A stretch of DNA of 64,000 bases. Origin: Euglena gracilis. Taxonomy: Eukaryota. Positions 39,156 to 50,640 of this stretch are shown piece after piece. Numbering within the stretch: the first letter of the stretch is position 1; each line of letters begins with the position of its first letter. The stretch is taken from positions 12,890,716 through 12,954,715 of the forward strand of contig CP154954.1 of NCBI GenBank assembly GCA_039621445.1, given 5' to 3'. The notes beneath the pieces were generated by a model that saw only the letters and a program-made list of their open reading frames with translations, was not told where the DNA came from and did no database searches. A program made the position numbers and the translations under genes.

Positions 39156-40931
39156 CAAAAAGATTGTTTTGGGCAATTTTTTTTCGATTCTTTTCGACAT
39201 TTTGGACCCGGAGTTTTATTCGACTTTTTTGACCCGGAAATGACCCAAGGTGCTGGGAAGCTGGCGGGTCGAACAGCGTTCATTTACCCCTGGGAAAACA
39301 GCTTTTTGGCCAATAACATGGTTCTGGGCAAAAAAAGAATTTTTCCGCTCGCTGCTTTTTTTTAAGCCCCGAAATGGCCGAAAACGAAGGAAGCCTGCCA
39401 CGCTGTTTTGGGCCGTAAATTGTTCATATCTCGCGCTGGTGGGGATTTATGGGGAAGTCAAAATATCATTAGATAGAGCGTTCCAAGGGCTTCAATTTAG
39501 GTCTCCGGATATTTCCTTTGATTTTGCTTCATTTCCAAGATATTTTTGAAACCTCGATATTTCGGCCCCGAAAACAGCCCAAGATGGCCCCAGAAACAGG
39601 CAAAATTGGCCGGAAAATGGCTGTAATTTGGGCTGCACGAAGAGTTTGGGTTCAGTAAAACATTGTTGGATAGGGCATTCGAGGGCGTCATTTCTGGACT
39701 GTGGACATTTTCTTTTGTTTTTCTTGATGTATTTCGAAGGAAAATCGGTTTTTTTGACCGAAATTCGACCCCAAAAAAAAAACTCAGGCGGGACATCTCG
39801 CACTTGAGATTTTTTTCTTTGTTGATGTGCACAATTGCGCACATTGACATCTTTCAGACATCTTTTATGAAAATGACATGATATAACCCCTAAAAACCGA
39901 AAATGTGAACAAGATGTGATGGGGTGCCCCAAGACGCGGAGGTGAAAACAGGGATTTTAGTCGAGAGGATGCCCAGGAGCAGGCATCACTGTGCTCCCCA
40001 GGTGGAAATGGTCATTTTGTACTTTGCCTAGTTTTGTTCCATTAAAAAGTTCCAAGTATTGCAAAACGGGCAGTTTTGGCAGGTTTTGGGGGGGGGGGGT
40101 CAAATAAAAAAATTCCGGTGCTTCGAGCCGGTCACTTGTAACAAAACCACCACCAACCTGCAAGCGGACCCCCCTGGGCCCAAGCCAAATTTGGTTTCTG
40201 GTGGCTTGCAAAATGGCTAGCTAGTGGATCCAGCAGGGATAGATGGGAAGTCCTTCAGCTTTGAGTAGGTGGTGGGAGGGTCCAGACCTTCCTGGGGGTG
40301 ACGTGCCACCCCCCAGATGTTGGGAGGGAGTGGCCAGACCCCCACCCCCCATCCTTTGCTGGTTTCAAAAGTAGCGAAAAAATTTCCTCCGGTGCTGCGC
40401 CCAAAGACAGCCCAGCAAGACACGAGGGCCAGTTGGGGGAGATTGGGGGACCCGCACCTCGGACCTCCCAGGAGAGAGGGGTCCAGTTAGTAGCTTTTCC
40501 AGTGGCGATTTTGCAGACCGCCCGATTATTACAGTTCCTCATTTTTCATGACAAATCGTCCCATCATGCTGTTTTTTTTTTTGGTATTGGCGTTCGATTC
40601 GCCGCCCCTGGTCCTGAACCTTTGCAATCTGACCAAGTTTTACAATAATCATTTTTTGTTCCGTCCTAGTTAGTTTGTATGTTATAGTAAGACAATATTT
40701 TCCTTCCCACCTCATTCGTTGCACTGCAACCACTTTGACGATGCCGTGTCTTTGCCTGTGGTGACAGAAGGTGCTTTGTTTGCAGCTGTCTGTGCAGTGT
40801 CCACTGAACTGCACTGCAAGAGTGTGAAATTTGTTGTTTTTTTTGTTTTTTTTTTTGTTTGGCTCCCTTTTTACTTTTTTGGGCACTTTCCCCCCCCCCC
40901 CATGTGTTATGAACCCCTGTACAGGGTTCAT

Positions 40932-42084
40932 AACCTTCCAGTTTGTCAGCTTTCACAGCATAGAAAAAGCCCATACACCCGCGCTCAAAGAATTTACCTA
41001 ATTCGGACTCTCCAGATTTCAATTTGGTGTCTAATCAGCTTGGGGGGGGGGGAAATACATGAAATAAAAATTAACCTGCGTTTTATGGATTCCAGACCAT
41101 TTCACATTCCCTCATTGGAAAGTGGTCAACCAACGATGGTGGGTCATAAATTGTCACTGCGTGACAGGACAAGGTATCGGAATATTGGCACAGGGCTGGC
41201 CCCTTTCCAACCCATTTGGAACCATGCAACGTGCTGTAGCGTCCCCCAATGGCTGCATCATTCATCGAACATTATTATGCTCCTGCAACTTTGTATTTTG
41301 GTGGGATTTCAAGACCCTCAAGGGGGGGGCTTTACAGAATTTACAAGTTTCGGAGGGGAATTCAAGCTTATCTGGGTGACCTATGCAAGATTTGCTGTGT
41401 ATTCCTATTTTCCTCAATAATGTGCATTTTTCTGTCGGAAACGGACGTTCTCTGTTGAAATTCTTGTATCCACCCGAAATTTTTTCAACTTTCTTCTGGA
41501 GGACTCCATTGAGGGGCTTCGTGTTTTTTTGGGGTATTTTGGGGGTTTTGCAATATTTTTGTGTACGACTTCCTGAATTTCTGGGACAAAGAGGGGGTTG
41601 GCTTTCAGAATTTGAAAGTAGCAAGTTTGACTGATTCAGCCTGCGTCCATCAACCAATCGCCCCGCTGACACCTAATTGTACAGCTTCCCACGCTTTCCC
41701 CTGCTTCGAGCCCAGGCTTCTGCAGTTGCGCTGAAATGCTAAATTGGTGTAAGGAGAATGGGGGGCAAGCGCCTGGGGGTGGTGGGGAGCTCCCCTCACC
41801 GTGTTCAAAAATTACGACATGTGCGCAGAATCGGCACATTACCCACGCCGGGGGGGGGGGGCGCAAGCTCCGGGGTGAGTGGAATCCAGACCAAAGCTCG
41901 GTGTGCTTCGGAGAAAAGAACCGGAAGCCTTTTTTTCCGCAGAAGTCTCTCCCCATTCCTTTGGGAGTCCCTCCATGGAAGCCGTGCGGCAAGCTTGCCA
42001 CCATTGAGGTGTTGAAGTGGCGCAAGTCGAGCCCCGCTTCATCTTGCAGCCCCGAAGCTGGTTGTTGCTGGCCCAGGGTGAGGT
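40932..42084 (+). repeat. Recent ~1.15-kb direct duplication, first copy
   Basis: Nearly identical to 45909-47055, from aaccttccagtttgtcagc to ggcccagggtgaggt. Confidence 0.95.
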
Positions 42085-45000
42085 CCCCTGGGCCCAAGAA
42101 AACGTTTGGTGGTGCTTTGCCAATTATTTGGCACAATGCAATCACCCTCGCCTACGCACCCAATGACCAACCTACCTCTCTGCATTTGAGCTTCGAAATG
42201 GTAACCGATACCGCTGACGTTATTGTTTCCTTCGGGGGGCACACCTCTTGCAATCTGAAGTGTGCCACTGGCTGAATGACTCTCCTTCCCAGCCTGCCAT
42301 AGGGTGGACTCTGGCCTGAATCGCCCCTGACCGCCTTTAATTTTACCTCCCTGAACCATCAAATGTGCTGATGAGCTACCGCAGGTAGGAGGTTTCGCAG
42401 GCGAATTTCCGTGATTCCAGCAATGATTGCTTTGTTCTTGTTCCAATTATCGGGAAGTCGTTAGCTGAATATGAAACAAACATTTCCGCCTGGCCATGCA
42501 AAAGATAACTGCAAGCAAAAGAGCGATAAAAAAAAATCTCAGTAATTCAAACAGAGCCGCCATGGATGCCTTTCAAACCGACGGGGAAAATGAAAATGTG
42601 TGTGAGTATTAAGTGTTTTCTTGAGGAACCCAAAGTCCGGCTGCCAAGGTGCTGGCTGGACCCCCTTTTTTCAGCTAAAAAGGTAATAACACCCGCCCTC
42701 AAAACACCCGCTCTTCACCGACTTTTTTATATACCAAATTTCATTTATTTGCATCCAAAACAGATCCCCCAGCCCACCTTCGCCCTGGGACCTCTCCCCC
42801 CCTCTCCCACCCCCCCCCCCCCGTCACCCTCACTCTCCGCCTGTTTTTTGATTGCATTTGCATTTGGATCTTTTGTTTCCCACCTGAGTTGGTCTGAAAT
42901 GTATGCTTATCTTTCCTTCTCCTCCGTCCGCCATGGGGCCCACACAGTCAGACGCCCCCCAGTCTAGTGCGGTGCCCCGAGGCGCCGTCCCCTCACTCGC
43001 CACCGCACGTGTGCCGCATTCTGCCTCGGTCGCCTCCATTCCCAGGGTGGGATGGGCAGCTGGTTTGCCCAGGCGTGGGGATGCCATTTTCCAGAAAGGG
43101 ACCATGGAAGCTGAGGATGGGGGAGCACCGGAGCTCCCCCAGGTTTTCACCTCGCATTTTGCTTTTTGACACGAAGATCAGGCTGTATTGTCGGGTGACG
43201 ACCCCACCCGGGGGGGCTGCCTGTCTGGGCACTCCAAGGCACCCCAAATCTGACCTGAGTTTTGAAGGCTTTTCCAAAGTTTCCAATGCCCCCCACCGGG
43301 ATCTGTGAAAACTGTCGGGGCGCCAGCAAAACTTTGTTGTGTTTTCATTTTTTTAAATAAAAATGTTTAAGCCGTTCGCTTTTGGCGTCCCATGCTTTGC
43401 TGGCGCTGCCGGCCCACCCTGGCGGTCTCTTCCTCCCGCCGTTGTGCCTCTGCCACTTGGCCGGGACGCTCCCCCCTCCGGTCTGCACCGCCAGCAAGCT
43501 CCTACAGTAAAAATGGCCGAAAATGAAAAAAAAGTTTCTTTGGTGGATTCTGGTTGAAGTTGATCTACTCTCAGAAAAAAGAAGCCTATTCCCAAAACCT
43601 TGCATTTGCATATTGTAACAAAAACTCTTTGAATATTTTTAATTTCTTGGATGTGTTTACATGAATGATCAAATGCATTGTTGGCATGCAGGGATTTAAA
43701 GGTAACTTTACCCCCACCTATAGGAAAAAATCGCCGAAAATGGCCGAAAATGGCAAAATTCTGGGGTCAACTGTAGGTGCTTGACCTGACTGCACCTCCA
43801 GCGTGCCGGGCCTTCCACGCGCGCTCAGCCACCGCGAGGTGCTGACTCTCAGGTGGCAAAAGGACCTTTCCTCCCCTGTGGAAAGCCACGCAGGACAAAC
43901 AACAAGAAGTGGGTGGTTGGTGTGTGCAATTGCACACGTCAACCATTCAAATGTTCAGAAATGTTGATTGTTCCACAATTTCAGGACTGAAGAACTGCAA
44001 TTTTATATTCAGTTCTTCAGGATGAAACCTGGAAATGTTGTGTATTTGTTGTTCCAGGGGCTAAGAAATGGTTTTTCACAGCTTCGATTGCCGTTGTTCA
44101 AATTTAGGCGTGCAGGCTGGTCCTTTATATGTATTTAAATTCTGCAAATACCTCTGAATATTCATATATTTGTAACAATCACATAACCATTTGTACAATG
44201 TACAAACTCATCATTTTTGGCTGGCGCATCCACTGTTCACAATTGCACAAACGGTTGGTGTGCATATTTGCGTTCACCAAATCGTTCAGTCAATATCCCA
44301 GGTTAATGAGACAACCATTGCAGGTTTATAAACACACCTGCTGGATGTTGGTGTACGTTTTGACTAAAAATATAGGAAAACGCGATTTTTTGGGCCTTTT
44401 TCAAGTCCCAAAATTTTCCCGCACATTTTTTCCCCCAGGAGCATTTTTTCCCCCAGGAGAGAATCCAACCTCCCCCCTCTGGAGGTGTCCAAACCACCCT
44501 GCCTACTAATTTCATAACCTGGTCGAACCCCCCCCCTGGTCAGAAACAAAAATAAATGTTTCTGCGATTGCCTCCCTGGTCACAGACGAACATTCATGGT
44601 CGTTGAACAGGAGGGATGGGAAGTTGTTGCGGGTTGAGAAAACGTCGAGATCTGGACGATGATGAACAATGCAACCAATTCCTAATGATCACGCTTCTTC
44701 ATGAGTTTTCACAGTTCAACCCTGGGGGGGGGGGACTGCAGCTAGTCCAAATTTCCCTTGAGGGCGGTCCGCAGGTTGGTGGTGGTTTTTTGATACAAAA
44801 CTGAAGAAAATTTTTATTTGACCCCCCAAAATCAAAATTTGCCAAAAATGACCGTTTTGCAATTTTTGGAATATTTCTTGAAAGAAACCAGCCAAGAAAC
44901 GAACTCACCAAAAACCCATTTCCATTGTGTGTGTGTGTGTGTGTATGTGCGCACGTGTTTATGGTTGTGTGCAAATTGTCCCATCATGCTGGCTTTTCGT

Positions 45001-45908: not shown

Positions 45909-47055
45909 AACCTTCCAGTTTGTCAGCTTTCATAGCATAGAAAAAGCCCATACACCCGCGCTCAAAGAATTTACCCAATTCGGACTCTCCAGATTTCATT
46001 TTGGTGTCTAATCAGGTTGGGGGGGAAATACATGAAATAAAAATTAACCTGCATTTTATGGATTCCAGACCATTTCACATTCCCTCATTGGAAAGTGGTC
46101 AACCAACGATGGTGGGTCATAAATTGTCACTGCGTGGCAGGACAAGGTATCGGAATATTGGCACAAGGCTGGCCCCTTTCCAACCCATTTTGAACCATGC
46201 AACGTGCTGTAGCGTCCCCCAATGGCTGCATCATTCATCGAACATTATTATGCTCCTGCAACTTTGTATTTTGGTGGGATTTCAAGACCCTCAAGAGGGG
46301 GGCTTTACAGAATTTACATGTTTCGGGGGGGAAGTCAAAGTTATCTGGGTGACAAATGCAAGATTTGCTGTGTATTCTTATTTTCCTCAATAATGTGCAT
46401 TTTTCTGTCGGAAACGGACGTTCTCTGATGAAAATTGTGTATCCACCCGAAATTTTTTCAACTTTCTTCTGGAGGACTCCATTGAGGGGCTTCGTGTTCT
46501 TTGGGGTATTTTGGGGGTTTTGCAATATTTTTGTGTACAATTTCCTGAGTTTCTGGGACAAAGAGGGGGTTGGCTTTCAGAATTTGAAAGTAGCAAGTTT
46601 GACTGATTCAGCCTGCGTCCATCAACCAATCGCCCCGCTGACACCTAATTGTACAGCTTCCCACGCTATCCCCTGCTTCGAGCCCAGGCTTCTGCAGTTG
46701 CGCTGAAATGCTAAATTGGTGTAAGGAGAATGGGGGGCAAGCGCCTGGGGGTGGTGGGGAGCTCCCCTCACCATGTTCAAAAATTACGACATGTGCGCAG
46801 AATCGGCACATTACCCACGCCGGGGGGGGGGGGGCGCAAGCGCCGGGGTGAGTGGAATCCAGACCAAAGCGGTGTGCTTCGGAGAAAAGAACCGGAAGCC
46901 TTTTTTTCCGCAGAAGTCTCTCCCCATTCCTGTTGGAGTCGCTCCATGGAAGCCGTGCGGCAAGCTTGCCACCATTGAGGTGTTGAAGTGGCGCAAGTCG
47001 AGCCCCGCTTCATCTTGCAGCCCCGAAGCTGGTTGTTGCTGGCCCAGGGTGAGGT
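45909..47055 (+). repeat. Recent ~1.15-kb direct duplication, second copy
   Basis: Nearly identical to 40932-42084. Confidence 0.95.
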
Positions 47056-47245: not shown

Positions 47246-47479
47246 TATATATATACATATATACATATATATATACATATATATACATATATATGTACAT
47301 ATATATGTATATATATATATATAAAAATATATGTAGATATATACATATACATATATATACATATACATATATATACATTCCTATATATATATATATTATA
47401 TATAATATATATTATATACACACATATATATGTATATGTATATATATGTGTATATATACATATACATATACATATATAC

Positions 47480-47523
<44 letters not shown>
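47246..47523 (+). repeat. (TA)n/(TACATA)n then (GT)n microsatellite
   Basis: Direct reading. Confidence 0.97.
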
Positions 47524-47528
<5 letters not shown>

Positions 47529-48062
47529 ATTTACGCCATGACCGCCAATGGCAGAATTGGTTGAAACATTTATCCATTAGCCACAACGACGCCATGTCCG
47601 CCTGATTTTGCTTTTACCGTTTACCCGTTTGCTATTTACGCTTTGTCCGCCAAATTTTGACCACACAAAAGGATGTTGTTATTGGGGAGCAGGGGAGGGG
47701 GGAGTGGGGTAGGGGAGAGAGGGGAAGGGGGGGTGGGGGGGGGCATGGGGGGAGTACGCGGGGGAGGGTGGGAGGGGGAGTAAGACGGGAAAAAGAAACA
47801 AACTGGACAGACACCAAAATACTGTTCCTACACCCCCGCGCCCCGGCCCCCCTCCCCCCGGGCACAGTGTTTACGTTGGTCGTCACCACCCGCCGTTGGA
47901 CGGCCACGGGGCAGCTCATACTGCTTGCCGTGGCACGCCCTCAGGCGGGGAACTACACCCAAGGTCCGGCCAACCAGTGTCTCGTCCTTGGGCGCAGTTA
48001 CACGCGCCAGTCGATCCCCGCGGTATGCCCTCTGCCCGTACGGGATCGACCAGGACTCACAC

Positions 48063-48135
48063 GGCGGGACCTGGGTCTCGAACCCACGACCTCCCGTGTG
48101 TGAGCCCAGCACCTTACCGAATAAGCTACTCGAGC
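48063..48135 (-). ncRNA. tRNA-derived module inside LTR (not a functional tRNA)
   Basis: GCTCGAG-TA-GCTTATTCGGTAAGGT-G-CTGGG-CTCACAC-ACGGG-AGGTC-GTGGG-TTCGAGA-CCCAG-GTCCCGC. A box TAGCTTATTCGG and B box GGTTCGAGACC are at tRNA spacing. D and T arms pair; acceptor and anticodon stems do not. Confidence 0.8.
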
Positions 48136-48200
48136 GATACTCGGCTTGGTACTACGCGCCGGCTACCAACCTCCGTAGGATCTCCCGTCTGCCGCACACA

Positions 48201-48210
48201 CTCCCCTCCC
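48201..48210 (-). promoter_or_regulatory. Polypurine tract GGGAGGGGAG (also 48892-48901)
   Basis: Plus strand ctcccctccc directly abuts the LTR end. Confidence 0.9.
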
Positions 48211-48753
48211 AAGAGCCTTACTACATTAGCCCACTGCGTCACTATGGCCGTGGCCCCTGCAGCTCGGGTTATGCCTCACACGGCCCTAGTTGGCTGAGTG
48301 CTTCTCACGAGTACTGCGTCACCAGGCTGCCGACCCCTGCAGCTCGGGTTTGCTATTGCCGGCAGTTTACGTATTGTCGATTTCCACGGGCTCTGCCGCC
48401 TTGGAGCGTCCCCCTTTTGCATCGGCTTGAGACTTTGGAACGGTGTAGGAGTTTCAGTCGCCCTAGACTCGGCGCGTCCGCCTCCGCCTTCCGGGCGCCG
48501 TGGGGTCAGGCTCTGATTTCCCGGTTCGTGTGGCATTAGACGGGTTCCTCTGCTACCATGTTTACGTTGGTCGTCACCACCCGCCGTTGGACGGCCACGG
48601 GGCAGCTCATACTGCTTGCCGTGGCACGCCCTCAGGCGGGGAACTACACCCAAGGTCCGGCCAACCAGTGTCTCGTCCTTGGGCGCAGTTACACGCGCCA
48701 GTCGATCCCCGCGGTATGCCCTCTGCCCGTACGGGATCGACCAGGACTCACAC

Positions 48754-48826
48754 GGCGGGACCTGGGTCTCGAACCCACGACCTCCCGTGTGTGAGCCCAG
48801 CACCTTACCGAATAAGCTACTCGAGC
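48754..48826 (-). ncRNA. tRNA-derived module inside middle LTR
   Basis: Same sequence as 48063-48135. Confidence 0.8.
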
Positions 48827-49236
48827 GATACTCGGCTTGGTACTACGCGCCGGCTACCAACCTCCGTAGGATCTCCCGTCTGCCGCACACACTCCCCTCC
48901 CAAGAGCCTTACTACATTAGCCCACTGCGTCACTATGGCCGTGGCCCCTGCAGCTCGGGTTATGCCTCACACGGCCCTAGTTGGCTGAGTGCTTCTCACG
49001 AGTACTGCGTCACCAGGCTGCCGACCCCTGCAGCTCGGGTTTGCTATTGCCGGCAGTTTACGTATTGTCGATTTCCACGGGCTCTGCCGCCTTGGAGCGT
49101 CCCCCTTTTGCATCGGCTTGAGACTTTGGAACGGTGTAGGAGTTTCAGTCGCCCTAGACTCGGCGCGTCCGCCTCCGCCTTCCGGGCGCCGTGGGGTCAG
49201 GCTCTGATTTCCCGGTTCGTGTGGCATTAGACGGGT

Positions 49237-49249
49237 TCCTCTGCTACCA
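49237..49249 (-). promoter_or_regulatory. Primer-binding site TGGTAGCAGAGGA, initiator tRNA-Met (also 48546-48558)
   Basis: Plus strand tcctctgctacca equals the 3' end, including CCA, of eukaryotic (e.g. vertebrate) initiator tRNA-Met. Directly follows the LTR CA. Confidence 0.92.
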
Positions 49250-49444
49250 TGTTTACGTTGGTCGTCACCACCCGCCGTTGGACGGCCACGGGGCAGCTCA
49301 TACTGCTTGCCGTGGCACGCCCTCAGGCGGGGAACTACACCCAAGGTCCGGCCAACCAGTGTCTCGTCCTTGGGCGCAGTTACACGCGCCAGTCGATCCC
49401 CGCGGTATGCCCTCTGCCCGTACGGGATCGACCAGGACTCACAC

Positions 49445-49517
49445 GGCGGGACCTGGGTCTCGAACCCACGACCTCCCGCGTGTGAGCCCAGCACCTTACC
49501 GAATAAGCTACTCGAGC
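49445..49517 (-). ncRNA. tRNA-derived module inside 5' LTR
   Basis: As above, with CTCACACGCGGGAGGTC at the one variant site. Confidence 0.8.
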
Positions 49518-50008
49518 GATACTCGGCTTGGTACTACGCGCCGGCTACCAACCTCCGTAGGATCTCCCGTCTGCCGCACACACACAGCCAAATGAACACC
49601 ATTTTGGATTTCAAGTGACCCTTTTTTTGCACGGCAAATAATTTAGGTACAATTCTGGCCGAATAAATTCATTTTCGGTTTTGATTAAGCTCTACGTTGC
49701 CTCCCAGCCTCCCATTACACCCATCTTGGCTTTTTTGGGAAAATGTTTTGTACTTTTTTTGCTAATTTGGGCTATTTTGCATTGATTTGGGCAAATATTG
49801 GGCTAATTTGGGTCAATATGAACACCGTTATGGCATTTTTGGTCATTTTGTGCCATTTTGATGATTTTGGGGATTTTTGTGGATTTTTGTGAAAATTTTT
49901 GTGGATATTGTTGGCATTTTGGGCTATTTAAGGTTATTTGAAGCTATTTTAGGTCATTTGGTTGCTCTTTGGGGCTTCTGTGGTCATTTTGGCTCGGTTG
50001 TGAGCCAA

Positions 50009-50640
50009 TGGATGCAGGCATCAGGCAAGATGCAGATATGGATGGACAAGGTGCAGATGCCGGACAAGATGCAGACGCTGGACAAGATGCAGTGGATGCA
50101 GATGCTGGACAAGATGCAGACGCTGGACAAGATGCAGACGCTGGACAAGATGCAGTGGTTGCAGATGCTGGACAAGATGCAGACGCTGGACAAGATGCAG
50201 ATGCTGGACAAGATGCAGACATTGGACAAGATGCAGACGTTGGACAAGATGCAGATGCTGGACAAGCTGCAGATGCTGGACAAAATGTAGACGCTGTACA
50301 AGATGCAGATGCTGGACAAGATGCAGTGGCTGGAGATGATGAACAGGATGCAAATTCCAGACAAGATGCAGTGGATGCATGGACGAGATGCAGATGTTGG
50401 ACAAGATGTAGATGCTGGACAAATTGTAGATGTTGGACAAAAGAGGACAATATTGGACAACATGCAATGGTTGTAGATATTGGACAAGATGCAATGATGC
50501 AGGTACTGGACAAGGTGTAGATACTGGACAAGGTGCAGAGACCACACAACATGCAAATACTGGACAAGACGTTGACACTTGACAAGATGCAGACGCCGGA
50601 CAAAATTCAAATGCTAGTCAAGATGCAGATGTTGTCCAGA
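50009..50640 (+). repeat. 18-bp minisatellite GATGCAGA(T/C)GCTGGACAA (reads DADAGQ)
   Basis: Regular core ~50060-50330, decaying on both sides. Confidence 0.9.

Follow-up and report, generated by a model that had tools for sequence, protein, structure and literature searches.

A stretch of DNA 64,000 nucleotides long (the window) carries on its minus strand a compact array of LTRs, each with a tRNA-shaped sequence near its 5′-end, and this raises two questions: what kind of element the array represents, and whether the tRNA-like sequence works as its promoter. The element is very probably a TRIM with a tRNA-derived module in its LTRs, for which the anatomy of the locus provides the first evidence. 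The element occupies 47868-49582 of the minus strand, which is its sense strand, and is arranged as LTR-I-LTR-I-LTR (I, internal domain) over 1715 nt (Table 1). Repeat-family detection finds three copies of the LTR, spaced by 691 and 691 nt; all three are 333 nt long and both internal domains 358 nt, so that a single LTR-I-LTR unit amounts to 1024 bp. LTR2 and LTR3 are identical and LTR1 differs from both at one of the 333 positions, LTR nt 104 (window 49479), and pairwise comparison of the two internal domains gives no mismatch over 358 nt. Each LTR has TG..CA termini, with TGTGTG at the start and AAACA at the end. The PBS, TGGTAGCAGAGGA, abuts the LTR end and the PPT, GGGAGGGGAG, abuts the start of the next LTR; the former is presumably the complement of the 3′-end of initiator tRNA-Met. 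By direct reading the array is flanked by a 5-bp TSD, CACAG, whose boundary is slightly ambiguous owing to the (CA)n-like LTR end, a duplication of more than 5 bp being impossible. An earlier reading made from the letters alone (the sequence-only reading) had described the same tandem arrangement, termini, TSD and PPT and the near-identity of the copies, and in all these points it is borne out. Sequence comparison within the 64-kb window found no further copy of the element, and a search of the window for a paralogous empty insertion site found none.

Table 1. Features of the element and its borders (window positions; minus is the sense strand of the element)
Feature	Positions	Strand	Basis
TSD CACAG, upstream side in the sense of the element	49583-49587		Direct reading; same as 47863-47867
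LTR1 (5′ LTR in sense orientation), 333 nt, TG..CA	49250-49582	-	Repeat detection and comparison
tRNA-derived module of LTR1 (LTR nt 66-138)	49445-49517	-	Rfam RF00005 and A/B pattern
Box A-like TAGCTTATTCGG of LTR1	49510-49499	-	Pattern match
Box B GGTTCGAGACC of LTR1	49466-49456	-	Pattern match
PBS TGGTAGCAGAGGA, directly after LTR1	49237-49249	-	Direct reading
Internal domain 1, 358 nt, non-coding	48892-49249	-	Comparison, Pfam, RNA fold
PPT GGGAGGGGAG, directly before LTR2	48892-48901	-	Direct reading
LTR2 (middle LTR)	48559-48891	-	Repeat detection; identical to LTR3
tRNA-derived module of LTR2	48754-48826	-	Rfam RF00005
Internal domain 2, 358 nt	48201-48558	-	Comparison
Second PPT copy	48201-48210	-	Direct reading
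LTR3 (3′ LTR in sense orientation)	47868-48200	-	Repeat detection and comparison
tRNA-derived module of LTR3	48063-48135	-	Rfam RF00005
TSD CACAG, downstream side	47863-47867		Direct reading
First sense-strand TTTT, about 50 nt past LTR3, in the flank	47816-47819	-	Putative Pol III stop after read-through

The tRNA-like module lies at LTR nt 66-138 in each of the three LTRs, where the Rfam tRNA model RF00005 matches the minus strand over model positions 1-71 of 71 with 15.8 bits; the gathering score is 29, and a degenerate head is expected to fall short of it. The corresponding E-value is 0.67 for 161 nt searched against 4227 families and, by our own arithmetic, about 1.6e-4 for a single family named beforehand. 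Within the match, box B is perfect and box A good, and the two stand at a tRNA-like spacing, in sense orientation and near the LTR 5′-end. The pattern TAGCY-N3-8-YGG-N25-45-GGTTCGANNCC occurs in the 64 kb only in the three LTRs, and none of 100 shuffles contained a match. The sequence-only reading had placed a tRNA-shaped module, complete with A and B boxes, at an offset of 66 nt in each LTR on the sense strand, and the model and the pattern both agree with it. Rfam at gathering scores returned no match in the whole window. ARAGORN called no tRNA at default settings, so the stretch is to be regarded as tRNA-derived and not as a tRNA gene; a 'tRNA-Pro' (agg) that the program reported at 80% thresholds is implausible and in a different register, and was set aside. 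Judged by its sequence, LTR nt 66-138 is thus a degenerate, tRNA-derived stretch. As for other transcription signals, the LTR and the internal domain read in the sense direction contain neither TATAAA nor AATAAA, and the sense strand has no T run of three or more across the 1715-nt element. The absence of T runs is non-significant, with a probability of zero runs of 0.107 in mononucleotide and 0.467 in dinucleotide shuffles, and T-run avoidance was therefore dropped as an argument for Pol III.

The element is non-coding. Pfam gave nothing above cut-off for its two longest ORFs (best E 0.054), and for a 188-aa sense ORF none of the 262 word-sharing candidates among proteins of 103-329 aa reached E ≤0.001; the earlier statement that no credible ORF is present is upheld by both searches. 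Eight ORFs of the window outside the element likewise gave nothing above the Pfam cut-off, and a scan of the window for the YxDD motif found a single match, which has no reverse-transcriptase context. The microsatellites of the window are mostly AC, and CpG o/e outside the element is 0.61; together with the eight Pfam-negative ORFs these values hint faintly at an animal host.

The LTR RNA is predicted to be strongly structured on one strand. The sense LTR folds at -176.1 kcal/mol (z -6.88; none of 100 shuffles equally good), the antisense fold is much weaker (z -2.84) and the internal domain has a z of +0.73. Such a strong, sense-only predicted fold is compatible with function of the LTR as sense RNA. 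Covariation was considered as support for the fold and set aside: of the 12 variable sites, eight are paired, and five of these keep the pair and three break it.

Sequencing runs indicate how widely the element has spread. In the DNA run X2, 2938 contigs match the element, 1087 at 99% identity or above and 1851 below 99%. Immediately beyond the LTR border at 49582 lie 20 loose ends that agree at only 0.39, which points to many insertion sites. The summed depth in X2, which is not a copy number, is about 2.2 times higher over the LTR than over the internal domain and about 20 times higher than over the flank (own arithmetic). By these comparisons the family is very abundant, very young and recently active, its youth following from the single difference among 333 LTR positions and from the share of contigs that are at least 99% alike. 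Deletion variants also occur in X2, each represented by one contig: all six listed skip joints that touch the LTR spare the leader and the tRNA-like module (LTR nt 1-137) and take out only sequence beyond nt 137 on the downstream side, and a seventh joint lies within the internal domain. Twelve LTR sites vary at 10% or more in X2; two are in the module and none in the 23 letters of the boxes, a comparison of box conservation that has no power at about 0.8 expected. The element sequence also turns up in a metatranscriptome (RNA-seq) and in runs whose RNA origin is a guess, the matches being contigs that give no transcript start, strand, cap or expression level. In the RNA-type runs X20 and X15 the contigs appear as flankless, circularly permuted versions of the 691-nt unit; reading this missing flank cover as transcript ends was discounted, since contigs show neither start nor strand. 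In metagenomes, a 19-nt stretch from the LTR end and PBS matched three loci that have nothing else in common with the element and were rejected as chance matches, and a 29-nt stretch of the tRNA-like module had no match in a metagenome scan. One of the three loci is a gene-dense, bacterial-looking contig, with the 19-nt match inside an ORF.

An element of this kind has been described. Helenus comprises TRIMs with tRNA-derived sequence in their LTRs and, together with Cassandra and Ajax, makes up TRIMp3; the original paper records it from fungi, six animal phyla and one plant (Kojima, 2024, Biology 13:119; PMC10886601). According to the same paper, its boxes read TRGCY..YGG (box A) and GGTTC (box B), its size ranges from 311 to 1263 bp with a longest LTR of 323 nt, and one family, LTR-11_DR, combines high copy number with tandem arrays (PMC10886601). 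Insertion of a SINE into an LTR is proposed there as its origin, and Pol III transcription of Helenus is given as unvalidated (PMC10886601). The suggestion of the sequence-only reading that no family of this type had been described therefore fails, an outcome which that reading had itself listed as refuting, because Helenus/TRIMp3 is the "tRNA analogue of Cassandra", tandem arrays included (PMC10886601). Its broader proposal of a SINE-like promoter on an LTR chassis, recently mobile, is consistent with all tests made of the anatomy, the module and the abundance and falls on novelty, in which Helenus precedes it. Conceptual novelty is none: the locus is a new example of the kind published in 2024 as Helenus and no new class. 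Taken as a whole, it is likely a tandem, abundant, recently active, non-autonomous TRIM of the Helenus (TRIMp3) kind that uses the mechanism proposed below.

That the tRNA-like module is a working promoter is a claim whose chances we put marginally above even. If so, TFIIIC and Pol III would act on the internal A/B promoter, with initiation at around LTR nt 55-66 (on the minus strand, window about 49517-49528). From there the transcript would cross the remainder of the LTR, then the PBS, internal domain and PPT, and finally the 3′ LTR, and would stop in flanking DNA, read-through into the flank being expected because the sense strand is without a T run. An autonomous partner would package this RNA and copy it in trans; the partner is probably Copia-like, since the TSD is of 5 bp and the PBS is taken to be of the initiator-tRNA type. 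The repeated LTR stretch would serve as R for strand transfer, the R/U5 boundary being undefined because the LTR has no canonical Pol III terminator. Unequal recombination between LTRs may have produced the tandem form, or else reverse transcription may have done so through template switching or read-through; routes of that sort have been reported for Cassandra and LTR-11_DR.

The same structure could belong to an ordinary Pol II TRIM with a TATA-less promoter in its LTR. The tRNA-like stretch would then be the inert remains of a SINE or of a tRNA fragment that inserted into an ancestral LTR and has been copied with it ever since. This reading is rather unlikely and has several observations on its side. 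The tRNA-likeness is weak (15.8 bits against 29, with no default ARAGORN call), the LTR has no Pol III terminator, and neither the non-significant T-run absence nor the powerless comparison of box conservation tells against it; in addition, Helenus is proposed to have originated by insertion of a SINE into an LTR, and its use of Pol III is unvalidated (PMC10886601). Against it stand the quality of the two boxes, box B being perfect, and their tRNA-like spacing and sense orientation close to the 5′-end of the LTR, which recall Helenus; TATAAA and AATAAA are both absent. Retention of the leader and module in six of the six listed LTR-touching deletion variants also speaks for a role, and in a family this variable, in which 1851 of 2938 contigs fall under 99% identity, an inert stretch should show some decay of its boxes, which the data have little power to reveal.

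Doubts of another kind concern the array itself. Near-identical copies are where assemblers err, and a single LTR-I-LTR could have been expanded by mis-joined repeats, leaving the element real and the tandem form an artefact; short contigs cannot tell one unit from two, and a joint that goes back 691 nt is expected either way. We nevertheless hold such an artefact to be improbable, since LTR1 is one position off LTR2 and LTR3, which fits a true recombinant array, and since arrays of three LTRs are common in Cassandra and tandem arrays are known for the Helenus family LTR-11_DR. A period of 691 repeated for 2.5 units might also suggest a satellite or segmental tandem repeat that mimics LTR features. 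This is extremely improbable: the array is bounded exactly by LTR ends with the 5-bp duplication on both sides, the PBS and PPT abut the LTRs, and the 20 loose ends in X2 at the LTR end lead into differing flanks. A further reading turns on RNA processing. A retrozyme has a self-cleaving hammerhead ribozyme in each LTR, and in a retrozyme-like element the LTR RNA would be processed and circularised, with the 691-nt LTR+I unit as circular RNA. The exceptional stability of the sense LTR RNA (z -6.88) and the flankless circular permutations in X20 and X15 would suit such a cycle. Yet on both strands of 47700-49700 no Rfam ribozyme family matches at E ≤10, and the CUGANGA core of the hammerhead is absent from either strand of the element, for which reason membership among the retrozymes was rejected; moreover, a de Bruijn assembler gives a circular contig for any LTR-I-LTR, and the DNA run X2 has the same joint. 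The retrozyme-like reading is accordingly very improbable, and we are equally doubtful of its variant, in which the LTR does more than carry a promoter, its sense RNA being folded into a highly ordered domain of several hairpins, and a retrozyme-like element driven by Pol III passes through circular or concatemeric RNA in the absence of any known ribozyme. Should the host be an animal, the locus may instead be the first animal Helenus of Copia type, with a 5-bp TSD, a presumed initiator-tRNA PBS and an LTR without a Pol III terminator, a possibility that we rate a little under even and that is much more likely than the one with circular RNA.

On the preferred reading as a Helenus-like TRIM, the locus matters for several reasons. 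A young and abundant family is a candidate test system for Pol III-driven LTR retrotransposition, and an active one suits a Pol III experiment because validation of such transcription is still lacking for Helenus as a whole. For annotation, such elements yield many false tRNA-like matches and also tandem arrays that assemblers may collapse. Its distinctive traits are an LTR without a Pol III terminator and an LTR RNA whose strong structure is confined to the sense strand.

Among known systems, the tRNA-derived SINEs (SINE2) are, like the element, non-coding and present in very many copies, and they too have a degenerate tRNA head with A and B boxes, but they have no LTR, PBS or PPT and depend on LINE machinery through a LINE-like or A-rich tail. 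Membership in SINE2 was rejected, since the tRNA head is here combined with LTRs, PBS, PPT and a TSD of 5 bp, and a tail is missing. Retrozymes share a non-autonomous LTR chassis, highly structured RNA and LTRs unlike those of autonomous elements, but differ by the hammerhead ribozymes in their LTRs, whereas the element has neither a hammerhead nor another Rfam ribozyme. Section 4.2 of the Helenus paper mentions them (PMC10886601). The animal TRIMs PbTRIM of ants, those of bivalves and ta-TRIM of taeniids are likewise short non-autonomous LTR elements; their abstracts, however, mention no small-RNA-derived promoter. Ajax, a nemertean TRIM, represents the TRIMp3 concept in an animal and has 5-bp TSDs, but its promoter is (partially) 5S-derived and its PBS is that of tRNA-Leu.

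Cassandra is close in plan. It is of similar size and carries a small-RNA-derived internal promoter (putative in the present element) in sense orientation in each LTR, it forms arrays of about three LTRs with internal domains between them, and its PBS, TGGTATCAGAGC (PMC7215508), has 10 of 12 letters in common with TGGTAGCAGAGGA. Unlike the element with its tRNA type 2 promoter (A, B), Cassandra has a 5S type 1 promoter (A, IE, C), and no 5S family is among the 17 Rfam matches at E ≤10 in 47700-49700; membership in Cassandra was rejected, because 5S-derived LTR sequence is absent and the module is tRNA-like. Cassandra terminates in the 5S part of its 3′ LTR, which yields an R of 18 nt, whereas the LTR of the element has no T-run terminator. 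It is also known only from plants and its Pol III transcription is validated, whereas Pol III use by the element is inferred.

The closest likeness is to Helenus, compared here by its published description. Both are short non-coding LTR elements with a PBS, a PPT, box A and box B and a non-functional tRNA-like part, the high copy number and tandem arrays have their counterpart in LTR-11_DR, and the unit of 1024 bp lies inside the range of 311-1263 bp; at 333 nt the LTR exceeds the published maximum of 323 nt, and the unit slightly exceeds the classical TRIM limit of <1000 bp. The paper gives animal Helenus 4-bp TSDs and Gypsy-type PBSs (Lys, Leu, Trp, Arg, His and others), and fungal and plant Helenus a Copia-like pattern with a 5-bp TSD and an initiator-tRNA PBS (PMC10886601). 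The element thus departs from the animal members in its TSD (5 bp against 4) and in a PBS presumed to be of the initiator-tRNA type rather than Gypsy-type, and in both respects it is like the fungal and plant members. It thereby joins a tRNA module to Copia-like hallmarks, a pairing that the paper reports only for fungal and plant Helenus (PMC10886601).

A repeat search resolved positions 47868-49582 of the window into 2.5 units with a period of 691 nt, its three copies lying at two intervals of 691 nt. Read on the minus strand, the order is LTR-I-LTR-I-LTR, I being the internal domain. LTR2 and LTR3 are exactly identical, LTR1 differs from both at one of 333 positions (LTR nt 104), and the two internal domains show no differences. 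Each LTR starts with TGTGTG and ends with AAACA, and the PBS is presumably the complement of the 3′-end of initiator tRNA-Met. Sequence reading and repeat comparison thus confirmed the array, the CACAG TSD, the PBS, the PPT and the near-identical copies described in the sequence-only reading. The absence of a credible ORF was also borne out: Pfam gave nothing above cut-off for the element's two longest ORFs (best E 0.054), and a search of proteins of 103-329 aa found no homologue of its 188-aa sense ORF. Neither a further copy nor a paralogous empty site was found within the 64-kb window. The structural reading, a miniature LTR retrotransposon (TRIM) with a tRNA-derived LTR module, is held with high confidence.

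Features of the tandem element and its downstream flank
Feature	Window position	Strand	Basis
LTR1, LTR2, LTR3 (333 nt each)	49582-49250, 48891-48559, 48200-47868	minus	repeat comparison
Internal domains (358 nt each)	49249-48892, 48558-48201	minus	repeat comparison
PBS TGGTAGCAGAGGA	gapless, right after LTR	minus	sequence reading
PPT GGGAGGGGAG	immediately before next LTR	minus	sequence reading
TSD CACAG, both sides of array	47863-47867 and 49583-49587		sequence reading
First TTTT on sense strand, in flank	47816-47819	minus	T-run scan

Two smaller repeats lie inside the element. Within the internal domain, a 38-nt stretch is directly but imperfectly repeated (48233-48270 and 48313-48350), the two copies being 79% identical and 80 nt apart; this pair recurs in the other internal domain (48924-48961 and 49004-49041). 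At LTR nt 33-39 (49544-49550 on the minus strand) the leader reads TGGTAGC, the first seven letters of the PBS; by our own arithmetic ~0.02 such matches would be expected in 333 nt, and this one may be due to chance. Two of the common population variants, at LTR nt 33 and 37, fall within it.

A tRNA-shaped module with boxes A and B had been placed 66 nt into each LTR on the sense strand, and was found there at LTR nt 66-138, where the Rfam tRNA model aligns in all three LTRs over model positions 1-71 of 71. The match is full-length and scores 15.8 bits, below the gathering score of 29, and ARAGORN at default thresholds reported no tRNA in the element. The E-value is 0.67 over 4227 families (161-nt search), or about 1.6e-4 by our own arithmetic for a single pre-named tRNA family. 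The D and T arms are intact and the acceptor and anticodon stems are broken. Box B, GGTTCGAGACC, matches the consensus perfectly, and box A, TAGCTTATTCGG, fits the form TRGCY..YGG of Helenus, the TRIMs with tRNA-derived LTR sequence (PMC10886601). The combined A/B pattern occurs within 64 kb only in the three LTRs, which are copies of one event, and 0/100 shuffles had any match. Because the full-length match is sub-gathering, ARAGORN makes no default call and both boxes are kept, the module, judged by its sequence, derives from a tRNA without being a tRNA gene, and it has preserved the components of a type 2 Pol III promoter. Complementarity between PBS and module is absent (longest common stretch 6 nt). 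ARAGORN at 80% thresholds made one call, which was rejected as implausible and lies in another register than the module.

Parts of the stretch are present in 20 of the 24 public runs listed, and at least half of its words in 14; 17 studies are represented. Window 48880-49750, which spans an internal domain, an LTR and flank, was compared with the contigs of four runs. In the DNA run X2, 2938 contigs were placed, 1087 at ≥99% identity, 1008 at 95-99%, 747 at 90-95% and 96 below 90%; mean summed word depth, which is not a copy number, was by our own arithmetic ~818,000 for the LTR, ~372,000 for the internal domain and ~40,000 for the flank. Twenty contigs depart from the window immediately past the LTR end (49582), with an agreement of only 0.39, indicating many different insertion sites. 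CpG observed/expected is higher in the LTR (1.07) and the internal domain (0.85) than in the remainder of the window (0.61), which fits a young insertion into a CpG-depleted genome. In X2 the right-hand flank of the element is repetitive, too (summed depth 15,000-68,000).

Pol III would initiate shortly upstream of box A (~49517-49528, minus strand), and its transcript would leave the LTR through the PBS, cross the internal domain and the PPT, and continue past the 3′ LTR into flanking sequence, the common LTR portion acting as R. The 5-bp TSD and the PBS type point to a probably Copia-like autonomous partner, which would package and reverse-transcribe this RNA and integrate the product. The tandem form could have arisen by unequal LTR-LTR recombination, or by read-through or template switching; in a recombination, the LTRs that share the nt-104 variant would place the crossover downstream of that position.

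That the module is a working promoter is slightly favored on the sequence evidence; the main rival, Pol II transcription with the module as an inert relic, is rather unlikely. On its sense strand, the 1715-nt array contains neither a run of three or more T nor TATAAA or AATAAA. The lack of T runs would enable Pol III to read through the array, and is not significant in itself (P(0) = 0.107 in mononucleotide and 0.467 in dinucleotide shuffles). Seven skip joints are listed in X2. The six that involve the LTR each delete parts downstream of LTR nt 137 and retain the 65-nt leader and the module; one variant has its LTR reduced to nt 1-137 plus the last 3 nt. As each variant is a single contig, these deletions hint at, but do not prove, a requirement for the module in spread. 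Twelve LTR sites vary at ≥10% in X2; two of them fall in the module, and the 23 box letters, where ~0.8 would be expected, contain none, so that this test of box conservation has no power.

Expression of the element is possible, judging from assembled contigs, which carry no transcript start, end or strand. In X20 (a metatranscriptome labelled leaf litter) and X15, the full 691-nt unit forms a circularly permuted contig without flanks, whose joint goes back 691 from 49570 to 48880; any LTR-I-LTR repeat comes out of a de Bruijn assembler as such a circle, and the same joint occurs in X2. A third run, X16, has a 739-nt contig over 48897-49582, comprising LTR and internal domain and breaking off 5 nt before the PPT end; in sense orientation a T7 run and unrelated sequence follow, so that this copy or transcript is devoid of a 3′ LTR. 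X15 is labelled as a second organism (B), and both of its contigs carry the unit at ≥99% identity over 48880-49570; B may be a close relative, the run may be mislabelled or contaminated, or the element may have been transferred.

The sense RNA of the LTR is predicted to fold at -176.1 kcal/mol, versus -142.4 ± 4.9 for shuffles (z -6.88; 0/100 as good), with z -2.84 for the antisense (2/100) and +0.73 for the internal domain (75/100). In the predicted structure, five hairpins are closed by pairing of the 5′ with the 3′ part of the LTR, and box B sits at the tip of one long hairpin. No covariation was found for this fold: 8 of 12 population-variable sites are paired, of which five keep the pair and three break it. 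No known RNA family was found for it, no Rfam ribozyme at E ≤10, and no hammerhead core.

Elsewhere in the window, microsatellites are AC-dominated, and none of eight ORFs tested outside the element matched Pfam above cut-off; along with the CpG observed/expected of 0.61, these are weak hints of an animal host. Some 460 nt away from the element is a minisatellite (50043-50440; 18-nt unit TGGACAAGATGCAGATGC, ~22 copies, 9/45/63-nt sub-periods). Towards lower coordinates from the insertion site (47246-47523, 47684-47862) there are a (TA)n tract of 248 nt, a (TG)n tract, then G-rich and C-rich tracts; the G-rich 47684-47754 faces the C-rich ~47835-47862, giving weak microRNA-precursor-like hairpin matches, all far below gathering. 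Another repeat has two copies (40674-42275 and 45941-47009) with near-identical ORF translations on both strands, and a further family with proline-rich translations lies at ~9.9-13.8 kb.

The idea that this type of family might be undescribed does not stand, because Helenus is already described (Kojima, 2024; PMC10886601); a tRNA-type Pol III module on an LTR chassis was right in kind, the kind being already described. Helenus elements, 311-1263 bp long with conserved boxes A and B, occur in Pucciniales, some Agaricomycetes, six animal phyla and Selaginella, form tandem arrays in the family LTR-11_DR, and together with the 5S-type Cassandra and Ajax make up TRIMp3; their Pol III use is not yet validated (PMC10886601), and later papers, in their accessible parts, merely cite that work. 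By its sequence, the element belongs to this described kind, Helenus/TRIMp3. It is of value as a candidate, both active and abundant, for supplying the experimental proof that Pol III-driven LTR retrotransposition still lacks, and for its unexplained, sense-specific LTR RNA structure. Set beside the named families by published description, it has every defining Helenus feature tested. Animal Helenus families, however, have 4-bp TSDs and Gypsy-type PBSs, whereas the element has a 5-bp TSD and a PBS of presumed initiator-tRNA type, and its 333-nt LTR exceeds the longest reported for Helenus, 323 nt. Cassandra terminates within the 5S part of its 3′ LTR, giving an 18-nt R, whereas the element has no T-run stop in the array; the element's PBS and the one given for Cassandra in PMC7215508 have 10 of 12 letters in common.
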